A stretch of DNA of 25,153 nt from a virus (Duplodnaviria; Caudoviricetes). Below, in pieces: positions 3,131-19,915 of this stretch (position 1 is its first letter; every line of letters begins with the position of its first letter). Where the stretch lies: IMG/VR virus record IMGVR_UViG_3300032269_000370, positions 1 to 25,153 of that record, one strand, 5' to 3'. The translations under genes and the position numbers were made by a program. Under the pieces are notes generated by a model. The model was not told where the DNA came from. It saw only the letters and a program-made list of their open reading frames with translations, and ran no database searches.

Positions 3131-3502
3131 TTATTCGCTCCAAGGCAGCGGCTCATTGGCATCACTGTTGATTGGATTATCTGATTGACCCAGTATGTTT
3201 TTACCTAACCAAATCAACATAACAGCATTGCCCTGTAGAGCCAAACGCAATTGTGCTTGTCTTAGGCTTTGTTTTAAATTATTGCGTCCGCGATCCAGTT
3301 CTGGTCTAAAGTTATAAGTCAGCGTGTTTTCATCGATGTCAAACCATTCGCATATCTCGTGGTTCTTACAGCCAATCTGCGCTAATTTATAAACTTCTTC
3401 AGGTGGCACTACCACATTCTTTCTGCTGACAATGCGGCCTTCTACAATTTTTGAACCATATCTAGTTCGCTTTACTTTTTCTTTAGGTTGTTCATCACTC
3501 AA
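3131..3502 (-). CDS. terS: Terminase small subunit (HTH-type)
   Basis: Immediately upstream of terL. HTH-like VYKLAQIGCKNHEICEWFDIDENTL and C-terminal GNAVMLIWLGKNILGQSD. Start moved to TTG at 3502, which has a GGAG SD and overlaps the upstream stop. Confidence 0.8.
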   Translation of the reverse strand: MSDEQPKEKVKRTRYGSKIVEGRIVSRKNVVVPPEEVYKLAQIGCKNHEICEWFDIDENTLTYNFRPELDRGRNNLKQSLRQAQLRLALQGNAVMLIWLGKNILGQSDNPINSDANEPLPWSE

Positions 3503-5327
3503 CGGTTTTCTCCAAATTAAATGCCGCAGCAAGATTAGTATCAACAACCACTTGATCAATGCGGCTCTGCGGATTCGCGAGTTCTATAATAGTAGCGTCT
3601 TGAGTGTGCGTAAATTTATAGGCACTGTTGTTTCTTAACTTAATTATGTAAAATATCTCATCTAGCACGGTATTTGGCCTGGAATTGAAGAATTCTTTAA
3701 CAGTTGTGCTGCCTTTTTGCTGAATATATTTTGTCAGTGCGTTATTGACTTCGGCAGTGTGAGATTCTTGTTCTGTAAAACTCAAGCCTATAAAATCACT
3801 GTATAACTGAGCATCGCGTAATGCTGCTCGTGATTCTGCTGTGGGTGCTTGACCATAATGCTCATCAACCACGCGGTGTATGGCTGACTCTGCTACTCTA
3901 ATACACCATTTGTCGTGTGCTGTGGTCCAATCTCTATCCCAGGGTATAATGGTACGACAAACGTGAGCCGCTTCAAAGGCAGTATAACAGAAAGTTTCTT
4001 CAACACTGGGTATAATGGCCAACGCTGCTGAACGCATAGCATCAACTTTACTGGCACCGGTTAATGCCACGTGAATTGTGTGTTCTATGCCTTCTTCTAA
4101 AAAGCGTCGTTTAAACTTGTCAGCAGACTTTTGACTGGGTGTAATCAATATGGCAGGATGACCACTGCTCTTACAAGCGCGAATAAACACTTCGGGATTT
4201 TTGCGTGGCTCATATGGACCAATATACAATATACCACTGCGATTGCTGAAATCTGTGTCGTCTAAACACTCTAGCAATTCAGGTTGTCCCAGCGGTGGGG
4301 TCATTACTGTGATGCGATTCTCAGTGACCTGTGTGTGTTGTAAAAATTCACCCCGTGTGTATTCACTTTGGCAAATAATTCGTATTGGGCTGGTTTCTAA
4401 TAGGCTGCGTGTTAAGTCAGTTAAAAAGTTATCTGGTCCGCGTCCTATGTCCATTTCACTGTGAGTGACATAATACATATTGTCGTGTTGCCGATCTAGG
4501 CCAATACTGATCGCAGCCAACAGTGTGTCCAAACTGTTGATGATCAATACATCATAACTGTATGTGGATAACGCTCGCATTAATCCTGCTCGCAAATCCA
4601 CAGCGTCTTTTAATCGCACAATGGGACTGCGCATAGCAATGTCCGCATCTAGATTGCTTTTTACAATGTCTGAATCGGGACTGATCCAATTGGCAATGTC
4701 ATTGTATCTGTCAAACTGTGTATTGGCGACATCACTGTCATTGCTGATAATATCAACTTGAACACCACTGCGTAATCCCCATTCTAACCAGCCATTGATA
4801 TAAGTGGTGACCCCACGATTAACATAACTGTGCTTGAGAACTACCAAACCTACACGCCTAGTTATAGGCTCATCGCCTCGCGCTTTTGCCAATTCTTCTG
4901 CTGAGGTAGCATAGTTTTTACCATTTAATAATCTGTCAATTTCCAATTCGCTGAATGCGGTCATTGAGGCGGTGAGACTGAGATCATCATTCAATCTGCT
5001 CAATAACTCTCGCAATTCTGTGGTCAATAGTGGATCATCCCAAGCAGCATATTCATTGGTTTTATTATCAGCCAATCTATAGGCCTGTGCTTGCTCCTCA
5101 GTTAATTCATTGGCAACAATAACTGGGATCTTAACCAGTTTAAGTCGTTTAGCCGCTTTGTATCTAGTATGTCCAACAATGATAACACGATTGCTATCAA
5201 CCACAATAGGCTGTTGAAAACCATATTGGCGAATAGATTCTACTACAACATCAACAGCCCGGTCATTGCGGCGTGGATTAGCAGGATAGGGCTTAATACT
5301 GGCAGTGTCGGCCATTTCGATAATCAT
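3495..5327 (-). CDS. ParB/Srx N-terminal domain fused to a GT-B (GT4-like) glycosyltransferase
   Basis: N-terminus PYPANPRRND..SIRQYGFQQPIVVD..IIVGHTRYKAA..ADNK is a phage ParB-like domain. The C-terminal half has YIGPYEPRKNPEVFIRA and IPSVEETFCYTAFEAA (the GT4 E-x7-E motif). Confidence 0.82.
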   Translation of the reverse strand: MIIEMADTASIKPYPANPRRNDRAVDVVVESIRQYGFQQPIVVDSNRVIIVGHTRYKAAKRLKLVKIPVIVANELTEEQAQAYRLADNKTNEYAAWDDPLLTTELRELLSRLNDDLSLTASMTAFSELEIDRLLNGKNYATSAEELAKARGDEPITRRVGLVVLKHSYVNRGVTTYINGWLEWGLRSGVQVDIISNDSDVANTQFDRYNDIANWISPDSDIVKSNLDADIAMRSPIVRLKDAVDLRAGLMRALSTYSYDVLIINSLDTLLAAISIGLDRQHDNMYYVTHSEMDIGRGPDNFLTDLTRSLLETSPIRIICQSEYTRGEFLQHTQVTENRITVMTPPLGQPELLECLDDTDFSNRSGILYIGPYEPRKNPEVFIRACKSSGHPAILITPSQKSADKFKRRFLEEGIEHTIHVALTGASKVDAMRSAALAIIPSVEETFCYTAFEAAHVCRTIIPWDRDWTTAHDKWCIRVAESAIHRVVDEHYGQAPTAESRAALRDAQLYSDFIGLSFTEQESHTAEVNNALTKYIQQKGSTTVKEFFNSRPNTVLDEIFYIIKLRNNSAYKFTHTQDATIIELANPQSRIDQVVVDTNLAAAFNLEKTVE

Positions 5328-5333
5328 AAATTC

Positions 5334-5365
5334 TCCTTGGACTACTATTTAAAGTAATCCAAGGA
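5334..5365 (-). promoter_or_regulatory. SD-sequestering hairpin with TAAATA in the loop
   Basis: Minus strand TCCTTGGATTACT-TTAAAT-AGTAGTCCAAGGA forms a 13-bp stem with one G-U pair. The 3' arm contains AAGGA of the SD for 3495..5327. Confidence 0.7.
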
Positions 5366-5378
5366 TTTTTATAATTTT

Positions 5379-6053
5379 TTAACAGCCTAAACCTTGTAAA
5401 GCATTAGCCAGATTTTGATAATGCCGCACTACGCTGGCCATACGCGTTTTAGCAGCATCTACTACTCGTGGATGTAGGAACTGTCCGCCAAAGCGCTCTA
5501 ACTGAACATAACCTAATGCGTGATTAGTGCCACGCTGGCCTTCAATAACTCGAAAATGTGTAAAACCCAACGCTGCCCAATATGCTGCCTTGGACCTAAT
5601 GCGACCTAATTCTAAACTAATGGCCACGCACTCTAAATGTTGCCGGGCAAAAGTATAAGCATAAGTGGCTATGCCTGCGGACCTATGCGCAGGATCAATC
5701 CAAATAAGTTCTAATGTTCTGTAATCAGTCGCGTCAGTGGGTAAAAAAGTAGAAATAAAACCTATATCTACTGTGTCCAGCGTAATAGCATAAGCCCGAC
5801 GCTGTCGATCATTGGTCAAATAATCTTCTTCATAATGATTGCGTGTCGCTGCGCCACCTGCTGCTTCATATTCATCTGCCCAACGATCTACTAATGCGGG
5901 CATCTGTAGCATACCAATGGGCCTAAACTGAACACGATCGCGTAATTGCCCAATTTGATTACAAATTGTATTTTGATGCTGTGTAATATCTGCGTAATAA
6001 CGGTTGGTCCTAGCACGCCATAATTGCTCGTCTCGTTTGCTTGCCTTGCTCAT
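5379..6053 (-). CDS. GNAT-family acetyltransferase-like protein
   Basis: GNAT motif A LELIWIDPAHRSAGIAT and downstream AAYWAALGF. AGGAG SD supplied by repeat module 1. Confidence 0.7.
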   Translation of the reverse strand: MSKASKRDEQLWRARTNRYYADITQHQNTICNQIGQLRDRVQFRPIGMLQMPALVDRWADEYEAAGGAATRNHYEEDYLTNDRQRRAYAITLDTVDIGFISTFLPTDATDYRTLELIWIDPAHRSAGIATYAYTFARQHLECVAISLELGRIRSKAAYWAALGFTHFRVIEGQRGTNHALGYVQLERFGGQFLHPRVVDAAKTRMASVVRHYQNLANALQGLGC

Positions 6054-6155
6054 CGCACACTCCTAAAATTGCGTAGCAGTATCGCTACATCAACAATTAT
6101 ACACAGGTCGCTCCTGAAGAGCAAGAACGACCCTGTGTGTTGCTTTTACGCTACA
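6054..6155 (-). repeat. Regulatory repeat module 1 (palindromic box, hairpin, sigma70 promoter, leader hairpin, SD)
   Basis: Core CTACATCAACAATTATACACAG at 6085-6106; -10 TATAAT 6096-6101; -35 TTGCTC 6119-6124 (17-nt spacer); box 6138-6155. Confidence 0.92.
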
Positions 6156-6793
6156 GTCTGCTCAGTGTCGAAGCAGTCCCAGGTGTTATCTGGATCTGGC
6201 TCACTAACATCGACACATTTTACATTCTCGCCACGCAGGAGTCGCATTAGGAAATGCTGTCCTACTACCTTAGGGTCAAGATATTCTTGAAATAAATCCA
6301 TTACATCACGCTGATACGCACAGTAGCCAGTCTTTAATACCAAATCTAAATAGCGAGTCATAACCGATTCAGCATCGTCATCTTCGACCCAGTCTTCAAG
6401 GCTTTGTTCTATGTCGTACCAGGCCATAAAGTCGGCCATAAATTCTGTGGATAAAATGCTATCGTGAATGTCTTGATAACAAGCCTCTAATTCTTCATCA
6501 TCTAGTTCCCAAATCTCTAAATCAAACCACAAGCGGAAACTACCATAACCATCGTCGTCCATCTTGTAAAAATGATTCCACCACAGTGCTCGTGTCTTGT
6601 ATGCTGCCTTGTAGGCCTTTTTTCGACGGTTTGCTATTAGCCTATCGTTGTCTTGGTTTAACTGCTCTCCAAGCATTTTGATTTGATCAAAATGAATAGA
6701 CTGATCCACTCCAAAAAAGCAGTAAATTTTTGGTTCGTCCCAGGAATTCTTGGGTTGAACAAATCTAAAACCAGCCCTAGTCTCATATGACAT
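6146..6793 (-). CDS. Hypothetical acidic protein (215 aa)
   Basis: Long ORF with a GGAG SD, bounded exactly by repeat modules 2 and 1. No recognisable family. Confidence 0.8.
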   Translation of the reverse strand: MSYETRAGFRFVQPKNSWDEPKIYCFFGVDQSIHFDQIKMLGEQLNQDNDRLIANRRKKAYKAAYKTRALWWNHFYKMDDDGYGSFRLWFDLEIWELDDEELEACYQDIHDSILSTEFMADFMAWYDIEQSLEDWVEDDDAESVMTRYLDLVLKTGYCAYQRDVMDLFQEYLDPKVVGQHFLMRLLRGENVKCVDVSEPDPDNTWDCFDTEQTVA

Positions 6794-6905
6794 AATATAC
6801 TCCAGTGTGTGTTAAAAATATCAGTAGCAACTCGCTACATCAACAATTATACACAGGTCGCCCCTGTAGAGCAAGAACGACCTCCTGTGTTGTTTTTACG
6901 CAACA
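6794..6905 (-). repeat. Regulatory repeat module 2
   Basis: Core 6835-6856; -10 6846-6851; -35 TTGCTC 6869-6874; box TGTTG-N8-CAACA 6888-6905. Confidence 0.92.
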
Positions 6906-7072
6906 ATGCGGCAAGTGCGTTGAACTGTGCTGCCCGGGCAAGTGTGATCACTACACTGAATGACTGACCTAACCCCAGTCTCGTAATCCACAGTATTGGT
7001 TGTGGTGGTTGTGACATTACAACCATCATCGGCGCAGCCTGCCAATAGGCATAGAATAAACAGGATTCTCAC
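6896..7072 (-). CDS. Small Cys-rich lipoprotein (58 aa)
   Basis: Not in the ORF track. MRILFILCLLAGCADDGCNVTTTTTNTVDYETGVRSVIQCSDHTCPGSTVQRTCRIVA*. LAGC lipobox, GTGA overlap with the upstream stop, AGGA SD, and the stop falls in the module-2 box as for the other cassette genes. Confidence 0.8.
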   Translation of the reverse strand: MRILFILCLLAGCADDGCNVTTTTTNTVDYETGVRSVIQCSDHTCPGSTVQRTCRIVA

Positions 7073-7299
7073 GCTGTGTCCTTTGAGATAAAATAGAATT
7101 CATTGGGCTTGCGATAGCGATTTACATAAAAGTGTCGTTGGCTAAATCCAGTGGATGCTGTATATTCGGGCACTGAATTATAAGGACCTTGTGGTGTCAT
7201 AATGGCCTGTGCTACTCTACCCCCAGTGCGTAGTTCGCCCTTTTTAAGTCGGCTCATTAATGCCCGGGACTCGGCAGTGTGCTTCGTACCGGGCCGCAT
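7069..7299 (-). CDS. Stand-alone NUMOD3-type DNA-binding protein
   Basis: GTKHTAESRALMSRLKKG matches the NUMOD3 pattern, followed by a TPxGxYxSxxE HTH-like segment. No nuclease domain. Confidence 0.65.
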   Translation of the reverse strand: MRPGTKHTAESRALMSRLKKGELRTGGRVAQAIMTPQGPYNSVPEYTASTGFSQRHFYVNRYRKPNEFYFISKDTA

Positions 7300-7547
7300 T
7301 ATGCTGTCACCTCTTCAATAGTGTATTCAACTTCATCCATACCACCATCACTGTCATCGTCGTCCGACTGCCAATCCCAATCAATGTCAGTGTCTTGATC
7401 GCAAACCCATTCAGCAAGCCCATCATATTCTGAATGCTGTCCTGATTCGATTTGTTGATACAGTTCTGGATCAATGTCAATTGTGGCCTCAAATACACTT
7501 CTGCGATAGATAGTGTAATAACCATTTTTAATAACTGTAATTTTCAT
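7299..7547 (-). CDS. Hypothetical acidic protein (82 aa)
   Basis: Start moved to ATG at 7547 (GGAGG SD, ATGA overlap). TAATG coupling to the next gene. Confidence 0.75.
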   Translation of the reverse strand: MKITVIKNGYYTIYRRSVFEATIDIDPELYQQIESGQHSEYDGLAEWVCDQDTDIDWDWQSDDDDSDGGMDEVEYTIEEVTA

Positions 7548-7675
7548 TCTGCGGCCTCCAACCATTGCTGTTCTTCGTTGGTTAAACTGCGAGTTTGTTC
7601 TGCTTCACGCAACTCAGCAATTAGATCTTCAGTTTGTTCTTGTGTCCAGGAACCTGTATGCCAATTGGGTTTCAT
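7544..7675 (-). CDS. Hypothetical micro-protein (43 aa)
   Basis: Not in the track. MKPNWHTGSWTQEQTEDLIAELREAEQTRSLTNEEQQWLEAAE*. GGAGG SD and ATGA overlaps at both ends. Confidence 0.75.
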   Translation of the reverse strand: MKPNWHTGSWTQEQTEDLIAELREAEQTRSLTNEEQQWLEAAE

Positions 7676-7839
7676 TCTGCGGCCTCCTGTAGTAGTTCAG
7701 TAAAAGCGGTTTCGATATGTGTTCGAACTGTATCGTATTCTGGATATCTGCGTAAGAGTCGAGCACACTCACGCAAATACTTTTGAACCTTTGACAGTTC
7801 TGCTGTCTTTAACAGCATACGATGTTCTTCGTTTGTCAT
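7672..7839 (-). CDS. Hypothetical micro-protein (55 aa)
   Basis: Not in the track. MTNEEHRMLLKTAELSKVQKYLRECARLLRRYPEYDTVRTHIETAFTELLQEAAE*. AGGAG SD and ATGA overlaps at both ends. Confidence 0.75.
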   Translation of the reverse strand: MTNEEHRMLLKTAELSKVQKYLRECARLLRRYPEYDTVRTHIETAFTELLQEAAE

Positions 7840-8027
7840 TCTGCGCACTCCTGTTTCTGTTGTGAATCGGGCCTATCTATACTGTGTCGATCAAGCGTCA
7901 ATTGTCTAGCCAAAAACCTAACTGGCATATTTGACCAAATTGACTGTTGCTGTGCTGTTGGCTCAATGCCACGCAGTCGTAAAAACTCACAATGAGCCTG
8001 TATTATGTTATGTCTGCTGTATCTCAT
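7836..8027 (-). CDS. Hypothetical protein (63 aa)
   Basis: First gene after module 3, with a TAAGGAG SD. Confidence 0.75.
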   Translation of the reverse strand: MRYSRHNIIQAHCEFLRLRGIEPTAQQQSIWSNMPVRFLARQLTLDRHSIDRPDSQQKQECAE

Positions 8028-8134
8028 AGCACTCTCCTTAGTTAAAAATGTGTAGCAGTATCGCTACATCAACAATTATACACAGGCCGCTCTCAAAAAG
8101 CAAGAACAGCCTGCTGTGTTGTTAATCTACAACA
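8028..8134 (-). repeat. Regulatory repeat module 3
   Basis: Core 8064-8085; -10 8075-8080; -35 TTGCTT 8098-8103; box 8117-8134. Confidence 0.92.
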
Positions 8135-8307
8135 ACATCGTTTAGACTCAAAAACGCTTTGAGATCGCACAGTTCGTCCTCGTCAATACTCCACAGGTCG
8201 TCTGTGTCGTAAGCGAACCTACAGGCCTGATCCAGCGACCACTCACGATCATAGCCTACCCTGCGCAAACGGTCAAACTCTCGACGCGCCAAATCTTCGA
8301 TATCCAT
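8122..8307 (-). CDS. Hypothetical protein (61 aa)
   Basis: Start moved to ATG at 8307 (MDIEDLARR), after the TAAGGAG SD. The track start lies inside the repeat. Confidence 0.75.
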   Translation of the reverse strand: MDIEDLARREFDRLRRVGYDREWSLDQACRFAYDTDDLWSIDEDELCDLKAFLSLNDVVVD

Positions 8308-8413
8308 CGCACTCTCCTTAGTTAAAAATCTGTAGCAATTCACTACATCAACAATTATACACAGGTCTGCTGCCTAGAGCAAGCAGAACTGTGTGTGTTG
8401 TTTTTATGCTACT
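8308..8413 (-). repeat. Regulatory repeat module 4
   Basis: Core 8343-8364; -10 8354-8359; -35 TTGCTC 8377-8382; box 8396-8413. Confidence 0.92.
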
Positions 8414-8609
8414 GTAGCGTAATGACCTTACACGCAGCCTCAATTACTGCTACGCGAGCCGCAAAAACATCTTCAGGCAAATCAGTAAAAATGAAATTGT
8501 CTGGATCGTTGGGATCTTGATACATAAGACCCTGTTCGACAAAGGCCGCTAGCATACGATCGCAGGCCTCTTGTATTTCCCGCTTCTGCTGTTTTTTAGA
8601 TTTACGCAC
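8409..8609 (-). CDS. Hypothetical protein (66 aa)
   Basis: Start moved to GTG at 8609 (MRKSKKQQK), after the TAAGGAG SD. Confidence 0.72.
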   Translation of the reverse strand: MRKSKKQQKREIQEACDRMLAAFVEQGLMYQDPNDPDNFIFTDLPEDVFAARVAVIEAACKVITLQ

Positions 8610-8715
8610 AACACTCTCCTTAGTTAAAAATCTGTAGCAATTCACTACATCAACAATTATACACAGTTCAAGTCGTTTGAGCAACCTGAACTGTGTGTGT
8701 TGCTTTTACGCTACA
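8610..8715 (-). repeat. Regulatory repeat module 5
   Basis: Core 8645-8666; -10 8656-8661; -35 TTGCTC 8679-8684; box 8698-8715. Confidence 0.92.
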
Positions 8716-9005
8716 ACGCTGAACTTGTGTGCTGTGGCCAACAAGCAATCGCGAATGGCCTCATCATCGCCAGCAAAATCGATGTCCAGCAAATAACGAG
8801 CAGCCTCATAGCGTGTCATCGCTCGAGGCAAGCCGATAATGTCGATCTTTGCGTTGCCCCACTTGGCCAAATGCGCAGTGCGACCTGTGCTGTTGCTAAC
8901 ACGAAATCTCCAACGATACTGTGGAATAGGCAGTGTGCCCACCTGAGTCTCGCCAACGAACTGCTGGCTCACCCCAGCGTAAATGTAAGTGTCTTCTCGA
9001 CGCAT
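8706..9005 (-). CDS. Hypothetical phage protein (99 aa)
   Basis: AGGAG SD and bounded by modules 6 and 5. Confidence 0.78.
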   Translation of the reverse strand: MRREDTYIYAGVSQQFVGETQVGTLPIPQYRWRFRVSNSTGRTAHLAKWGNAKIDIIGLPRAMTRYEAARYLLDIDFAGDDEAIRDCLLATAHKFSVVA

Positions 9006-9117
9006 TTCAAACTCCTATAGTTAAAAAATGTAGTGCTCTCTATTCACTACATCAACAATTATACACAGTTCAGGCTGTTTGAGCAACCTGAACTGTGTGT
9101 GTTGTTTTTACGCAACA
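9006..9117 (-). repeat. Regulatory repeat module 6
   Basis: Core 9047-9068; -10 9058-9063; -35 TTGCTC 9081-9086; perfect 12-bp stem ACACAGTTCAGG/CCTGAACTGTGT; box 9100-9117. Confidence 0.92.
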
Positions 9118-9320
9118 GTGGCAAATTTATACATTAAACTGCTAATGGCCATAACAGTGGCCTCTGCCTTGTGCTGTTCTGGAAAATTATAAGTTGTATA
9201 AAGACTGTTTATAAAATGTTCAGTGTGGTCATCGCTGACATATCCCAATGTCTCGAACCACCACGCTGCTGAATCGTAAAGTTGATCAGCAATACTATCT
9301 ACTGTTAAATCTGCGCTCAT
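9108..9320 (-). CDS. Hypothetical protein (70 aa)
   Basis: AGGAG SD and bounded by modules 7 and 6. Confidence 0.75.
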   Translation of the reverse strand: MSADLTVDSIADQLYDSAAWWFETLGYVSDDHTEHFINSLYTTYNFPEQHKAEATVMAISSLMYKFATVA

Positions 9321-9434
9321 CTCAATAACTCCTATAGTTAAAAAATGTAGTGCTCTCTATTCACTACATCAACAATTATACACAGGAGTCAGGATCAACG
9401 CAACCACTATTTTGTGTGTTGTATTTGAGCAACA
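9321..9434 (-). repeat. Regulatory repeat module 7 (first in transcription order, weak hairpin)
   Basis: Core 9364-9385; -10 9375-9380; -35 TTGCGT 9398-9403; box 9417-9434. Confidence 0.9.
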
Positions 9435-9450
9435 GTTGGGAGTGTGGGGT

Positions 9451-9474
9451 CGGTGTTGTATTGGCGCAACACCG
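9451..9474. promoter_or_regulatory. Extra (eighth) palindromic box upstream of the array
   Basis: CGGTGTTG-TATTGGCG-CAACACCG: the same TGTTG-N8-CAACA box with perfect 8-bp arms, 37 bp from the module-7 box. Confidence 0.7.
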
Positions 9475-9520
9475 GTGGTTATTAATGTTAAAACGGTCTT
9501 TTGTTTTTGAACGCTATTGG

Positions 9521-9718
9521 CTACGCCATTAATGCTGTATTTTTAATTGGATTTAATACAATGGTTTTAATTGCTTGGCCACCCAAATTCATCGTGGCCC
9601 CAAGTTGATAGTAATGTGTTTCAGCCATTGCCCTATCGCTGTAATAAAAGTCTGCTGTGCGATTGCCAGTCAGTGTAATTGCCAAGTGATATTGGTCGGT
9701 ATTATTGTTTTTTCGCAT
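9521..9718 (-). CDS. Hypothetical protein (65 aa)
   Basis: Start moved to ATG at 9718 (MRKNNNTDQ), which has a GGAG SD and avoids a long overlap with the upstream gene. Confidence 0.65.
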   Translation of the reverse strand: MRKNNNTDQYHLAITLTGNRTADFYYSDRAMAETHYYQLGATMNLGGQAIKTIVLNPIKNTALMA

Positions 9719-10163
9719 TGATCTTTCTCCAAGAATTAAAACGTTGATCAGGTGGTAGTGTAATGGCCAATTTAATAGGCCAGCCTCTGTGTATGCGCCC
9801 CAGCACTGTAGCATAGGATATGCCCGAAGCCTCACTCCATTCTGTTATCATTTTGGTTCGCTTTTGGTATGTCTTTTTAATTGTGCTATCAAAAGTTCTA
9901 GCCAATTCTCTGTGTGTGCGCCATTCCAAATTGTCTGCTATCCAACCTTCGCTTCGATCTCGCCTACATAACATATGTCGCAGTGTTGGTGGTGTTCCAC
10001 AATTGGCCAGCACATAAGTTTCAAAACTTCTATATGTGGGCCATTCCAGTGGTAATTGATGTGCCCAGGCATAATCTCTGTGACCGGGTCGTTGCCTTAT
10101 ATCGCGTATGGTGCGATAAGCATTCCAGATTTTTTTAATATTAGGATTGGCTAGATTTGGCAT
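9702..10163 (-). CDS. HNH-endonuclease-like protein, probably catalytically degenerate, with a C-terminal HTH
   Basis: WPTYRSF..CGTPP..LCRRDRSEGWIADNLEWRT follows the phage HNH pattern (dRidn.gY.p.NcrWat). The C-terminus is ITEWSEASGISYATVLGRIHRGW. Start at 10163 is uncertain. Confidence 0.65.
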   Translation of the reverse strand: MPNLANPNIKKIWNAYRTIRDIRQRPGHRDYAWAHQLPLEWPTYRSFETYVLANCGTPPTLRHMLCRRDRSEGWIADNLEWRTHRELARTFDSTIKKTYQKRTKMITEWSEASGISYATVLGRIHRGWPIKLAITLPPDQRFNSWRKINAKKQ

Positions 10164-10371
10164 CTGGGTAATATCCTGAACGAGCCATTCGAGCATATAA
10201 TTGCTGTTTGAAACTGGGTTGTTCTCCGCCCTCACTGACATTACGTCGAGCCATATCCACAATAGCGTGTTGTCCTGAATCTAAACTCATCATTGTGATT
10301 AGATCCTGTTGTGTGGTACGATGCTCGCGTATTCTACGACCTAAATTTAATAATTCCACTGGGTTAAACAT
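10141..10371 (-). CDS. Hypothetical protein (76 aa)
   Basis: ATG with an AGGAG SD, and ATAAATA at 10392-10398 just upstream. Confidence 0.7.
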   Translation of the reverse strand: MFNPVELLNLGRRIREHRTTQQDLITMMSLDSGQHAIVDMARRNVSEGGEQPSFKQQLYARMARSGYYPDAKSSQS

Positions 10372-10399
10372 ATTTTTTACTCCTACGCATTTATTTATG

Positions 10400-10626
10400 T
10401 GATTTACTACAAGTGCTTAAATTTTAGTTGTGTGTATGTGTGTATAAAACTGCTGTATGTATAGCGAATTTCTACTAGCACTATATTTTTACTTTTACTA
10501 TATATTATATAATATTAATATTATTATTAATAATAAACATAATATACATAATATATATTGTAGTAGCATTAAACGCACATTTTGATGTGTATGACCATTT
10601 TTTTAGTCATACACATCACATACACT
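10400..10626. other. Putative replication origin
   Basis: Non-coding region next to the helicase stop. A 39-bp A/T-only tract at 10499-10537, GTGTATG repeats in both orientations, and a perfect 13-bp inverted repeat at 10583-10595/10606-10618. Confidence 0.6.
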
Positions 10627-12153
10627 TTACTCAGTTTCCTCAGTGCGAATATCTCGACTGTAAGTGATTCTATACTCAAAGCCTGCCATATCGCGTCGTT
10701 TAGTCAATTCCAATCCAGGAATGTTAGCAGCAATGTCTTTGATGTCTCGTCCAAACTTCTGAACATTCATATCACATCGCTGATTGCCACTTGTGCTTTT
10801 TTCATACTCCACATACTCTTCAAACAGTGCTTGAGCACGAACACGCTCTTCTCTAAACAATTCATATGGCCTTGATCGCAGCCAAGCCTCCATTGTGGTT
10901 ATTTGCCGCTTTATGGCCTGTGTGCGTTTAATGTCAGCCAACACAGCACGATTCAATTGTAGTGGGCTAGGTTGTCGTTCATTTACACTGCGCCATAATC
11001 CAATAAAATTAACACGATCAAACACAGCCCAGTCCATAACCGGCTTACAGTCAATTTGATAAAAGCGTCGCATACCTGTATCGTCAAATATCAACCTGCT
11101 TACATCCTTGTTGGTCGTACCAACAAAAGTAGCGCGATTTACAATTTGCGTATCCACATTCTTGCTGAGTATTCTGCTGTTGAAAGTGTCTTCTGTAATG
11201 CGTCGTTTAATGTCCTCAATATTGCTGGTTGCGCTACGCCCCATCTCATCAAAAAACAGCACATAGTTTCTCCAAATATCGTGATTTTTGCCCTCAGTTA
11301 TGTCCTGAAAGTTAGTATTAGCAAAAAAGTCAGCAACTACCCCACAGATATATTTTTTAACCAGTGTGCTTTTGCCAGCGCCTTGTGGGCCATAAAATAT
11401 TGGCATCATATGATCTTCTACAGTATAGCCAAACATCTTGCGTTTAATTTGCCAAACAAAATGTTTCAGCACTGTGACGGTTTCCGGCACACGCACCTCA
11501 GTTATACTATTAGCCAATGCCAGCCATTGTTCTTCCATCATTTCAGTTAGCACAGGGCTTTCCCAAGCCACGCTGGTCATTAAATCGCTGGCTATGTCAT
11601 CTTTAACGCGATTCATCCAAACACTAATCGCATTTTCTATTTGCCGTTCTGTAAATGGCAGTTTAAATCGCCTATTACACATAATCAACTTCATCAACAT
11701 TTCTTTTAGGGCAAATGTTTTAGGATCGCTGTAAATTACCTTAATGCGATCACGCTCGCTCAGTGTTTCCAATTGGCTTTTATTCACTACAAATCCGGCA
11801 CCCAAATCATATGGTGTGTCTATGGTAAACATTCCTTGAAAAGTCATTCGTGTCTGCCATTGCTTTAACAGTGCGTCCACGAAATCGTATTCTGTTTCTG
11901 GTACGGTGCCCAATTGACTGCGCAGTGTTTCATTGCTGACAAATTTGCGACTTATGCTGAGTATGTCCTTAGCATCCATATCATATAGGATTGCTATTTC
12001 GCGTCGATCCGCTAGTGTTAAACTGTTGTGATCCAATACAGTTAAAAATTCACCAAAGTCAATTGGTGTTCCTGATCTATAGCGTTCTTTTGCTAGATCA
12101 ATTGCTTCTTGATTTTGCCTGCTGCTGACAGCAGTCGTCACTGTTAGTGCCAT
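10627..12153 (-). CDS. VirE/VapE-family P-loop helicase (replication protein)
   Basis: Walker A GPQGAGKS, Walker B VLFFDEM, FVGTTN and DDTGMRRF are characteristic of VirE/VapE-like helicases. No recognisable primase domain in the N-terminus. Confidence 0.85.
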   Translation of the reverse strand: MALTVTTAVSSRQNQEAIDLAKERYRSGTPIDFGEFLTVLDHNSLTLADRREIAILYDMDAKDILSISRKFVSNETLRSQLGTVPETEYDFVDALLKQWQTRMTFQGMFTIDTPYDLGAGFVVNKSQLETLSERDRIKVIYSDPKTFALKEMLMKLIMCNRRFKLPFTERQIENAISVWMNRVKDDIASDLMTSVAWESPVLTEMMEEQWLALANSITEVRVPETVTVLKHFVWQIKRKMFGYTVEDHMMPIFYGPQGAGKSTLVKKYICGVVADFFANTNFQDITEGKNHDIWRNYVLFFDEMGRSATSNIEDIKRRITEDTFNSRILSKNVDTQIVNRATFVGTTNKDVSRLIFDDTGMRRFYQIDCKPVMDWAVFDRVNFIGLWRSVNERQPSPLQLNRAVLADIKRTQAIKRQITTMEAWLRSRPYELFREERVRAQALFEEYVEYEKSTSGNQRCDMNVQKFGRDIKDIAANIPGLELTKRRDMAGFEYRITYSRDIRTEETE

Positions 12154-12375
12154 ATTTTCTCCAGTAGGTTATCATCATAATCCGCCTCGCTGATTAATGT
12201 TATATTAGCCCAGGGTGCTTATTCACCTTGACTTATCGCAGGGCCACCAGACTTGCTCTGGGCGGCAGTATAATTTCTCACATTATACTCACCCGAAAAG
12301 CCCAATTAAGGGCTTCGTGGGTGAGAGTTTTGCGATAAGTCTAACTACAGGAGTGTGCTAACTTGCGTCAGCACA
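12154..12375 (-). ncRNA. Structured 5' leader (candidate cis-regulatory RNA) of the helicase gene
   Basis: A 9-bp GCAA-tetraloop hairpin, a perfect 11-bp stem closing three hairpins, and a long-range anti-SD pairing (see findings). Confidence 0.65.
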
Positions 12376-12381
12376 GTATTT

Positions 12382-12410
12382 ATTATAAACACACTCAATC
12401 TGTTTGTAAA
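12382..12410 (-). promoter_or_regulatory. Sigma70-type promoter
   Basis: TTTACA (12410-12405), 17 nt, TATAAT (12387-12382), with an A/T-rich upstream tract. The predicted start near 12375 coincides with the first hairpin of the leader. Confidence 0.7.
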
Positions 12411-12428
12411 GAGATTTTTTTAAAAAAT

Positions 12429-12686
12429 TTACTCATTGCTGGGCAATTCCCACCTGCTACGCTTATTGGGTGAGCCCTGCGGTCTACCTGGAGGACGAGG
12501 ATTACCAAAAGAACCAATTTCCACTATGCGGCCATCTCGTACCATTAGATTTTGTTTTACTCTGCCACGTGGATGCCATCTGGGTTCATCATTACTATCA
12601 TATTGCTCACTGTAGCGTGTTCTACCATTGCGATATATTCTATCACAGGTCCGTTTAATAAATTCATCCAGTTTGCGCTGTTCCAA
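12429..12686 (-). CDS. Hypothetical basic protein with a GRP (AT-hook-like) motif
   Basis: 85 aa, Arg-rich, RPPGRPQGSPNKR near the C-terminus. Start uncertain. Confidence 0.6.
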   Translation of the reverse strand: MEQRKLDEFIKRTCDRIYRNGRTRYSEQYDSNDEPRWHPRGRVKQNLMVRDGRIVEIGSFGNPRPPGRPQGSPNKRSRWELPSNE

Positions 12687-12694
12687 TTCACACC

Positions 12695-12919
12695 TTAAAA
12701 TTTCATTAAAATGGTTATAATTAGACTGATTAGACTGCCGCTAATACCCAAGGCACTGGCGATAATTGTCTTGGCTAAATCGCCTTTATTTTTAACGATT
12801 TCCGCTGATAATTCGTCTAATTTTGCCTCTATTTTGTCGAATCTTGCTGAAATTTCAGCATATCTTTCAGCACAGAGATCAACGTGGGCTGCTAGATTTT
12901 CCTTTTCTATATCAATCAT
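12695..12919 (-). CDS. Coiled-coil protein with a C-terminal transmembrane helix (holin-like)
   Basis: HVDLCAERY followed by a coiled coil and a hydrophobic C-terminus (IIASALGISGSLISLIITILMKF). Located after the tail genes. Start moved to ATG at 12919 (GGAG SD, TAATG overlap). Confidence 0.6.
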   Translation of the reverse strand: MIDIEKENLAAHVDLCAERYAEISARFDKIEAKLDELSAEIVKNKGDLAKTIIASALGISGSLISLIITILMKF

Positions 12920-13299
12920 TATTGACTCCAAGGTAGTGGTTGGTATTCAGCCGCAGTTTCAAATATGTCTATTTGACTTTGTATATTGGCCACTGCTTGA
13001 TTTTCATATTGAACAATGGCATCTGAACCCAATTGTGTTTGAACCCACGTGACTATTTCAGATTCAGTTAGATTGTTAAAATTAATATATGTGTTGGGAT
13101 CGGTGGGAGCGGGAACTATTTGATTGCCTGCCACAACTCCTTCTAATCCAACTGGCTGATCATTCCATATATAACCACGATTAGCAGTCAGCATCCACAT
13201 AACATTATTCACTGCTTGTGGGTATTGTGGATTGTTATTAACGGTAGTGAGACCTGTTATTGCCCACACATAAGTTATGGTTGTTGATGTTGTTGTCAT
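12919..13299 (-). CDS. Small tail-fibre-associated protein
   Basis: 126 aa. The ITYVWAI..VNNVMW..YINFNNLTESEIVTWV pattern is typical of small phage proteins that follow fibre genes. Confidence 0.6.
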   Translation of the reverse strand: MTTTSTTITYVWAITGLTTVNNNPQYPQAVNNVMWMLTANRGYIWNDQPVGLEGVVAGNQIVPAPTDPNTYINFNNLTESEIVTWVQTQLGSDAIVQYENQAVANIQSQIDIFETAAEYQPLPWSQ

Positions 13300-13302
13300 T
13301 GT

Positions 13303-14346
13303 TTAATATCTCCCTGGAAAAATTCCCACTTGTTGTGGATAACTGGTGTTATTGACAGGTGAATTTAATAAAGTATAGGTGGCAGTTCCCGTGAATCTAT
13401 AATAGATACTAGGATTCAAATACACTCCATATACTACTAAATCACCAGTTCCACTGATTTTTAACCCAGTGACATTATTGGCTGGTTGTTGAGCAGGAGT
13501 GGCAATTTTGGTAAATGTGTTTCCTGAACGATTATAAGCATAAAATCTTGGAACTACACTGGTTCCAATTAGCAATCTTCCTCCATCTGGACTCCAATCA
13601 ATATTAAAAACGGCCCCAGTAGGCAGCGTAGCAGGATTAGACAATTTGGTAAATGTATCACCTGATCTATTGTAAATGGTTATGTATGGACTGGTTGGTC
13701 CACCGTGTGCTATACTGCTGCCATCTTGATTCCAGGCCAGCGTATAACCTCCTCCAGTAGGCAATCCACCAACGAAACTGCTGGTGCTGATCAAACTGAA
13801 TGTATCAGTTCCAGTCCTATTGAATACCACAAGGTTAATACCACCTGCTTGTCTTATGGCAAATGCCACACTTTTACCATCTGGACTCCACGCAGGAACT
13901 GGTTCGCTGCTGACAGTAAAAACACCACTGCTGGTCCAAGGAGTGCTGGTTGTTAGAGTAAAAGTATCGCCTGAACGATTTAATAAAAATACATAAGGGG
14001 CAGCAATGCTGCCTACCATAAGACTATTACCATCTGGACTCCAATCCATTCTGCCCACAGAAGGAATAACTGGAGTTCCTAAAATCCGTGTAAAATTGGT
14101 TCCAGTTCTATTATAGATATAAACACCTGGACTTAAACTTCCAGGCACAGCCATACTATTTCCGCTATTATTCCAAAGCCCGCTACTAACACTACCACTG
14201 GCCTGAACCGTAGTAGTGTTAATAAATTTAATATAATCGCCTTGAACCTCATACCAGCGAACTATATTGGTTGGTGATGTGCTGCCACCCAATGTTATGC
14301 TATAAACAGGTGGAGGTGTCGCAATAGCGTGGCTAATAAATGGCAT
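13303..14346 (-). CDS. WD40/TolB-like beta-propeller protein (possible receptor-binding protein)
   Basis: Repeated blades WSPDG/WNQDG ... YNRSGDTFTKL at ~45-50 aa spacing. Translationally coupled to the collagen gene. Confidence 0.8.
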   Translation of the reverse strand: MPFISHAIATPPPVYSITLGGSTSPTNIVRWYEVQGDYIKFINTTTVQASGSVSSGLWNNSGNSMAVPGSLSPGVYIYNRTGTNFTRILGTPVIPSVGRMDWSPDGNSLMVGSIAAPYVFLLNRSGDTFTLTTSTPWTSSGVFTVSSEPVPAWSPDGKSVAFAIRQAGGINLVVFNRTGTDTFSLISTSSFVGGLPTGGGYTLAWNQDGSSIAHGGPTSPYITIYNRSGDTFTKLSNPATLPTGAVFNIDWSPDGGRLLIGTSVVPRFYAYNRSGNTFTKIATPAQQPANNVTGLKISGTGDLVVYGVYLNPSIYYRFTGTATYTLLNSPVNNTSYPQQVGIFPGRY

Positions 14347-19834: not shown

Positions 19835-19915
19835 TGTAGTCTCCTATGAGTAGTGAAATAACAGCACTGAGGCACTGTCAAGTTATCAGTATTTATTGAA
19901 ACGATAAAAAATTGG

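Follow-up and report, generated by a model that had tools for sequence, protein, structure and literature searches.

The question raised by this locus is whether the region between a promoter and the start codon of a phage replication helicase gene acts as a regulatory leader and, if so, what it responds to. The window, by which we mean the whole 25,153-base stretch analysed, is the record of a tailed phage estimated to be 93% complete, with portal, terminase and tail genes present. The gene behind the leader encodes a 508-residue VapE-like helicase (10627–12153, minus strand; Pfam PF05272, E 4.8e-17) in which a protein family search gave no match to a primase domain. About 49 relatives cover most of its length at 31–89% identity, and its predicted model (pLDDT 84) has the SaPI Rep–DNA structure 7PDS as best structural match (E 1.3e-9, TM 0.52); tblastn against annotated phages gave just partial matches, at 25–29%. 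Elsewhere in the window a ParB-like domain is fused to a glycosyltransferase (3495–5327), and a Dps/ferritin-like protein, called by eye, is encoded beside the portal gene (1–420).

Structure of the leader in the window

The initial annotation of this DNA had placed a sigma70 promoter ahead of the helicase gene, followed by a multi-stem leader RNA that hides the Shine–Dalgarno (SD) sequence. As a sigma70-like site the promoter is borne out, being the best of 33 such sites in 5000–13500 (11/12 matches; shuffle mean 22 sites). The leader folds at −90.7 kcal/mol compared with −60.4 ± 4.3 kcal/mol for shuffled sequences (z −7.12), none of 200 shuffles being as stable; its structure is real and far beyond chance. 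The features are as follows.

12382–12410, minus: sigma70-like promoter, TTTACA, 17 nt, TATAAT (11/12 matches)
12377–12382, minus: TAAATA box, a T4-late-type promoter candidate, overlapping the −10 element
12354–12375, minus: P0, 5′-terminal hairpin with GCAA loop; 6/8 pairs changed on both sides
12342–12353, minus: anti-SD strand in the P0–P1 linker (fold prediction and letter check)
12331–12341, minus: P1 5′ strand, closing the four-way junction; perfect 11 bp, 4/10 pairs changed on both sides
12321–12326, minus: PK1 5′ strand TCTCAC, in the window also able to pair as the outer part of P2
12288–12325, minus: P2, long hairpin with a C/G-run stem; loop starts UUNR in most members
12267–12289, minus: P3 hairpin; 5/5 stem pairs changed on both sides
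12281–12276, minus: PK1 3′ strand GTGAGA, the P3 loop (cognate-pairing tests)
12246–12263, minus: P4 hairpin with a bulged C and five-base loop; 98.6% of cells paired, 4/6 pairs changed on both sides
12241–12246, minus: PK2 5′ strand, directly preceding the P1 3′ strand
12230–12240, minus: P1 3′ strand (letter check)
12214–12227, minus: P5 hairpin; 3′ side complementary to the SD/AUG region in most relatives, not in the window
12206–12211, minus: PK2 3′ strand; 91.7% of cells paired, 3/5 pairs changed on both sides (also RNAalifold)
12178–12196, minus: variable spacer hairpin ahead of the ribosome-binding site (RBS)
12151–12171, minus: 3′ side of the anti-SD helix, SD GGAG (12162–12159) and start codon
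10430–10626, no strand given: likely replication origin, short opposed repeats flanking an AT-rich core

The 9-bp hairpin with a GCAA loop is present at 12375–12354 (−12.6 kcal/mol, one G–U pair), and a letter-by-letter check found the perfect 11-bp stem and its three hairpins exactly where they had been placed. The pairing said to hide the SD also exists and contains the GGAG at 12162–12159, but its predicted core is just 4 + 4 bp around a U–U mismatch (−9.9 kcal/mol). Contigs matched to this region spanned it in fragments, a possible source run aside. An alternative pairing of GCCCAG in the third hairpin (12263–12258) with CTGGGC (12213–12208) fared differently: the segments are complementary, but not one pair is compensatory, and each of the 500 shuffles scores at least as high. 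We rejected this register for want of covariation, the same downstream strand covarying with a segment 17 nt further 3′ (PK2). The earlier description had neither pseudoknot PK1 nor the covarying register PK2, and it lacked hairpin P5 and the TAAATA box that overlaps the −10 element. None of the window's 11 terminator-like sites lies within 12154–12410, so that the intrinsic terminator of a transcription attenuator is not found in the window leader; terminators in other members were looked for by eye only.

Conservation and covariation in related phages

A locus search with the single helicase protein returned no relatives and alignments were required; a helicase-alignment search followed by nhmmer gave six distinct relatives of the leader, a DNA-pattern search eight further members, and a primase search three more among ten new loci. 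The collection of regions upstream of homologous helicases, suggested earlier as a check, thus found the leader structure conserved in relatives. The family comprises 18 distinct phage sequences including the window, 40–97% identical where aligned (mean 57% among 15 aligned members; window versus others 51–65%), with an element of about 175 nt, ranging over 160–200 nt. That it belongs to no named family was upheld by a cmscan-type check against Rfam 15, which gave four matches at E ≤ 5 in the window, none in 12154–12410; over 12 family loci there were three sub-threshold matches, none on the element. The element was absent from L001 and L016 (57–58% helicase identity) even with filters off, from all nine new Prim-Pol loci and from 150 other genomes of the prophage host's family, and the family model gave no full-length match in 100 pattern-matched loci. 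BLASTN with one member each against phages and against 72,556 plasmids found nothing meaningful. Two loose DNA patterns were discarded: the first held two real members among the 120 matches listed, the rest being mostly chance, and the second none among 120 listed.

All 18 members lie upstream of primase or helicase genes. The eight found by DNA pattern alone provide an unbiased test of this context because they were found without reference to genes, and all eight precede such genes. The downstream proteins belong to the Prim-Pol, PriCT_2, VapE, DUF5906 and DUF3987 families, and a P-loop helicase gene is present in the operon of every member with enough downstream DNA. The core ends 17–55 nt ahead of the start codon in 18/18, and each of five longer records (86–100% complete) holds one copy. 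The idea that the RNA replaces a missing primase was dropped because the element also heads primase genes. One member sits inside a ∼37-kb integrase-bearing prophage in a Sapientia aquatica record. In this prophage (G001:C58, L304–L306) a scan of 29 proteins gave no repressor or sigma match and one weak activator match (E 0.008).

We then have covariation with which to judge the fold. Across 12 sequences, both sides have changed in 33 of the 57 pairs, compared with 21.0 in shuffles (0/500), and 80.3% of cells are paired in the named structure, a value reached by none of 500 shuffles. Slid controls fell to 37–47%, a comparison that leans in the structure's favour because the structure was derived from the same sequences. 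Many G–U pairs are retained across members. In PK1 the strand that follows P1 pairs with the P3 loop, and the sequence varies between phages while complementarity is kept; the cognate strands pair at −8.3 kcal/mol as against −4.8 for non-cognate ones (p=1.5e-5). PK2 links the strand preceding the P1 3′ side with one that follows P5, giving −9.2 for cognate as against −6.4 kcal/mol for non-cognate strands (p=0.0015). Both tests used 12 members; for PK1 three near-duplicates had been dropped and two windows shifted by hand. In each of the three later members, found by the primase search with a model holding no pseudoknot, cognate PK1 beat all 24 non-cognate pairings. PK1 scored just 54% paired on MAFFT columns because its strand is misaligned, and per-sequence tests were relied on instead. 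RNAalifold recovered PK2 unprompted from 15 sequences; it is poor in L295 and carries one mismatch in L318. Bases that are invariant or nearly so are concentrated at the junction and PK2, and few unpaired bases are invariant. At the level of covarying complementarity, then, both pseudoknots are shown, and covariation supports a four-way junction with two pseudoknots. PK1 and the outer P2 pairs compete in the window, and PK1 may therefore be an alternative state.

Promoters and the replication module

The box ahead of the RNA reads TAAATA in 14 of the 17 members with upstream DNA and TAAGTA in the other three, and the 5′-terminal hairpin starts 1–6 nt after it in 17/17, the box having been excluded from pairing by design. 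A sigma70-like site overlaps the box in just 3/17 members. The TAAATA box likely sets the 5′ end of the RNA. Ranked among its 15 permutations upstream of genes, TAAATA comes 1st in five of seven phage genomes, 2nd in one and 3rd in the window; in host flanks it ranks 11th. Most genes led by TAAATA have a leader shorter than 60 nt. The box resembles the T4-family late promoter consensus as given in passages of PMC2984593, and a TATAAATA/NATAAATA-like box is indeed found ahead of genes, as in T4-type late promoters. TAAATA precedes many genes in 30–38-kb phages, with 10–18 upstream sites each; sites were noted in G002–G006, in G001:C58 at about 107–144 kb, and in the window at 19895, 12382, 10397 and 5351.

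The late sigma factor that such promoters would need was looked for in the phages themselves. A gp55 profile (phrog_234, which matches T4 gp55 at E 2.9e-69) found nothing in seven genomes, and neither sigma factor nor DNA polymerase appeared among the 80 proteins of two complete genomes, 38 of which had no family. One speculative and rather unlikely account holds that these small phages, which have T4-late-type promoters but neither a late sigma nor a DNA polymerase, parasitise T4-like phages, the double-pseudoknot RNA being a phage-only sensor of a helper-made protein or nucleotide signal that licenses replication only in co-infection. If TAAATA boxes need the helper's sigma, these would be fully tailed phages dependent on T4-like phages. 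Full helper dependence is doubtful because the window has seven host-type promoter repeats. These dispersed ∼80–100-nt repeats on the minus strand stand ahead of small genes (6064–6142, 6814–6892, 8043–8121, 8322–8400, 8624–8702, 9026–9104 and 9343–9421), and in every copy a TG-TATAAT −10 lies within an inverted repeat and is followed by a short hairpin, a run of T and an SD; they are probably operator-bearing host-type early promoters.

Directly 3′ of the helicase stop codon lies the origin-like region, with a GC content of 0.13 in 10470–10570. In SaPIs, iterons in opposite directions flank an AT-rich core right after the gene, according to passages of PMC9371898, and the window is like them both in this arrangement and in its helicase fold (PDB 7PDS); these phages differ in encoding their own terminase, portal and tail genes, and the same passages of PMC9371898 describe no comparable leader for SaPIs. 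Repeated 8-mers occur in 16 of 17 post-helicase regions, two of the 17 being from the same phage and one having AT repeats only, and their sequence differs per phage. By analogy, the window's replication origin is likely downstream of the helicase, apart from the leader element: opposed iterons around an AT-rich core are absent from the leader and present downstream of the helicase, and none of four origin repeat motifs has a copy in the leader. In L025 a 331-residue open reading frame follows the helicase (1987–2979) with no repeat-rich origin between; other loci differ. That the leader element is itself a DNA origin or single-strand initiation signal is extremely improbable. It adjoins an initiator-type helicase and its folding has a weak strand asymmetry (sense more stable than antisense in just 10/15 members), but its G–U pairs are kept, it is tied to promoter box and start codon, and the SaPI-like layout and repeated 8-mers lie elsewhere.

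Predicted burial of the ribosome-binding site and its possible relief

In all 15 members folded, nested folding predicts that the SD/AUG region is paired, so the proposal of SD sequestration holds as a prediction for the family. The linker helix originally held responsible does not, however, serve as the anti-SD across the family (p=0.63 for linker–SD pairing, cognate against non-cognate): it occurs in 2/18 members and, within the family, is strong only in the window and L020. When the window's anti-SD strand is deleted in silico, the predicted openness of the SD rises from 0.20 to 0.81. In 13/15 members the SD partner is mainly the P5–PK2 tail (weak or mixed in four of these 13), and the helix by which this tail buries the SD cannot coexist with P5 and PK2. 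Tail–RBS pairing was not significant with the first fixed window (p=0.28); with AUG and PK2 strand included the tail prefers its own RBS (p=0.026, 15 members), 10/15 members lying at a shuffle fraction of 0.1 or less, and with the window and L020 dropped post hoc p=0.007 (13 members). The cost of opening the RBS exceeds that with shuffled tails by a mean z of 1.0, being positive in 12/15 and −0.2 in the window; opening costs of other window genes were left out, two values being implausibly high. Modelling thus gives a modest indication that in most members the tail acts as an anti-SD competing with PK2. The window's anti-SD helix can form alongside PK2 and therefore no exclusive switch is evident there; its switching logic may differ from that of most members.

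We favour, with a probability of roughly 0.45, the reading that this is a doubly pseudoknotted 5′ leader gating translation of replication genes, probably via a protein from outside the operon; that it is a translational switch of some form is probable. Of the switch first proposed, a conserved, non-Rfam structured leader ahead of replication genes stands, and the antisense-responsive version finds no conserved antisense promoter. Transcription is predicted to start just after TAAATA, and the default fold would bury the SD (OFF). In most members PK2 and P5 would capture the anti-SD strand and so release the SD (ON). The anti-SD helix of the window and of L020 would be an outer extension of P1, needing melting or cutting. 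The trigger may be a protein of the host or of a co-infecting T4-like helper. Three results favour a protein from outside the operon: the RNA is kept while downstream primase and helicase families swap, it was not found in host chromosomes (0/150 family genomes), and there is no conserved antisense promoter.

The swapping of downstream families bears equally on autogenous control, in which the operon's own helicase or primase would bind the leader and repress its own translation. There is precedent in a phage replication gene, T4 gp32 acting on its pseudoknot (passages of PMC3014915), and every operon with enough downstream DNA has a P-loop helicase gene; yet the RNA is kept across differing protein families, the leader has none of the window's origin repeats, and the RBS of the gene 32 operator is unstructured, unlike that here. 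We regard such control as unlikely. Still less probable is a metabolite riboswitch in which a nucleotide-type ligand (a dNTP or an infection signal, for example) would occupy a pocket made by the junction and PK2, stabilising PK2 and freeing the SD: the clustering of conserved bases at junction and PK2 and an aptamer-plus-platform layout fit, whereas the scarcity of invariant unpaired bases, the 150 family genomes lacking the element and the lack of Rfam resemblance do not. We give a similarly low weight to a static fold that merely lowers translation and protects the mRNA. A hairpin 1–6 nt behind the box in 17/17 (with the design caveat above), the modest anti-SD signal and the coexistence of both structures in the window would suit it, but two conserved pseudoknots exceed the needs of damping, and the leaders of most TAAATA-led genes stay below 60 nt.

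Very unlikely, in our judgement, is an RNA acting free of its message, whether as a ribozyme, as a scaffold or primer for replication, or as a pRNA-like multimer joined by kissing loops. Hypervariable PK1 sequences could pair between molecules, and the order PK2 5′, P1 3′, P5, PK2 3′ mirrors, by eye, the helix order P7/P3/P8 of the group I intron core; against this, there is no Rfam ribozyme or intron match, the element is intergenic and interrupts no gene, its inner domain is another one, the window leader has no terminator, operons with their own primase also carry the RNA, and linkage to the start codon is tight. More remote again is antisense control of the IncI-α repZ/Inc type. The P2 loop begins UUNR in 13/15 aligned members and a weak plus-strand promoter match lies at 12147–12175, but a consensus scan of 17 members, made because a plus-strand antisense RNA had been suggested, revealed no positionally conserved antisense promoter (antisense TAAATA 0/17; antisense sigma70 matches 6/17, at scattered positions), and six genomes held no consistent trans-encoded complement of at least 11 nt.

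The preferred reading, a leader gating translation, has relatives in function. In satellite phage P4 the alpha operon, encoding primase–helicase functions, is controlled at the RNA level and has a host-type and a helper-activated promoter, its CI being a processed trans-acting RNA that causes premature termination; our leader is alike in RNA-level control of a primase–helicase operon, but no terminator or CI-like RNA was found here. The IncI-α plasmid ColIb-P9 repZ leader, in which a pseudoknot situated upstream of the RBS is required for translation and a cis-encoded antisense RNA (Inc) acts against the leader (passages of PMC8383071), works alike as a predicted translational gate; in our family PK2 covaries, overlapping the predicted anti-SD in most members. 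The present element differs in belonging to phages, in its four-way junction and two pseudoknots, in having no conserved antisense promoter, and in the lack of a sequence match for one member in 72,556 plasmids. With the T4 gene 32 operator, which according to passages of PMC3014915 joins a two-helix pseudoknot to an unstructured A+U-rich RBS ahead of the single-stranded DNA-binding protein gene, it has in common a pseudoknot in a phage replication-gene leader; here, though, a far larger RNA precedes primase or helicase genes, with the RBS predicted as paired (15/15). In T4 gene e and I-TevI, the same passages of PMC3014915 relate, RBS-burying hairpins are removed by a late start inside the structure; an SD-burying helix near a late promoter is shared, but here the box is upstream of the whole structure.

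We conclude that this is a new RNA family whose proposed regulation is like that of the IncI repZ leader or the T4 gene 32 operator, yet a member of neither group. To our knowledge, phage RNA regulators with tertiary structure are few; the present family is compact, has two covarying pseudoknots and is fixed at the head of otherwise swappable replication modules. The leader offers a target for structure determination and ligand hunting and a handle on replication timing in polymerase-less phages, and the member in a prophage of a cultured bacterium (the Sapientia aquatica record) makes direct testing possible. A literature search at listing level found no description of this RNA. Neither 'primase' nor 'helicase' appears in the main text of PMC10690425, and the part of its supplement searched held none of four motifs or two dataset identifiers; since the supplement was covered in part, the family may be among the 10,000 unnamed candidates of that study. 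None of five terms is present in bioRxiv 10.64898/2026.09.15.751765, supplements aside.

The linker anti-SD recurs elsewhere. A second, smaller kissing-loop leader type of 120–145 nt was seen by eye at the same position in seven other loci (L324:2031–2170, L326:1602–1734, L335:2008–2157, L336:2206–2337, L340:2124–2266, L343:2203–2331 and L025:290–436). It consists of P0, an anti-SD linker, P1 and a pair of hairpins with complementary loops in 7/7, and it folds with z of −3.9 to −6.6 in six loci and −1.5 in L025. The anti-SD placement first proposed for the window is thus missing from most family members but recurs at the same position in these seven loci. Linker–RBS pairing favours the cognate partner (p=5e-5) in a set chosen post hoc, the seven loci with the window and L020, and linker removal opens the SD in five of these nine. 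The shared layout and P2 stem suggest that the two leader types may be homologous. In L004 and L005 a third design is seen about 145–170 nt upstream of the helicase-like gene, where a 5′ segment behind TAAATA is complementary to the loop of a hairpin that resembles a terminator and has a run of T ahead of the SD.
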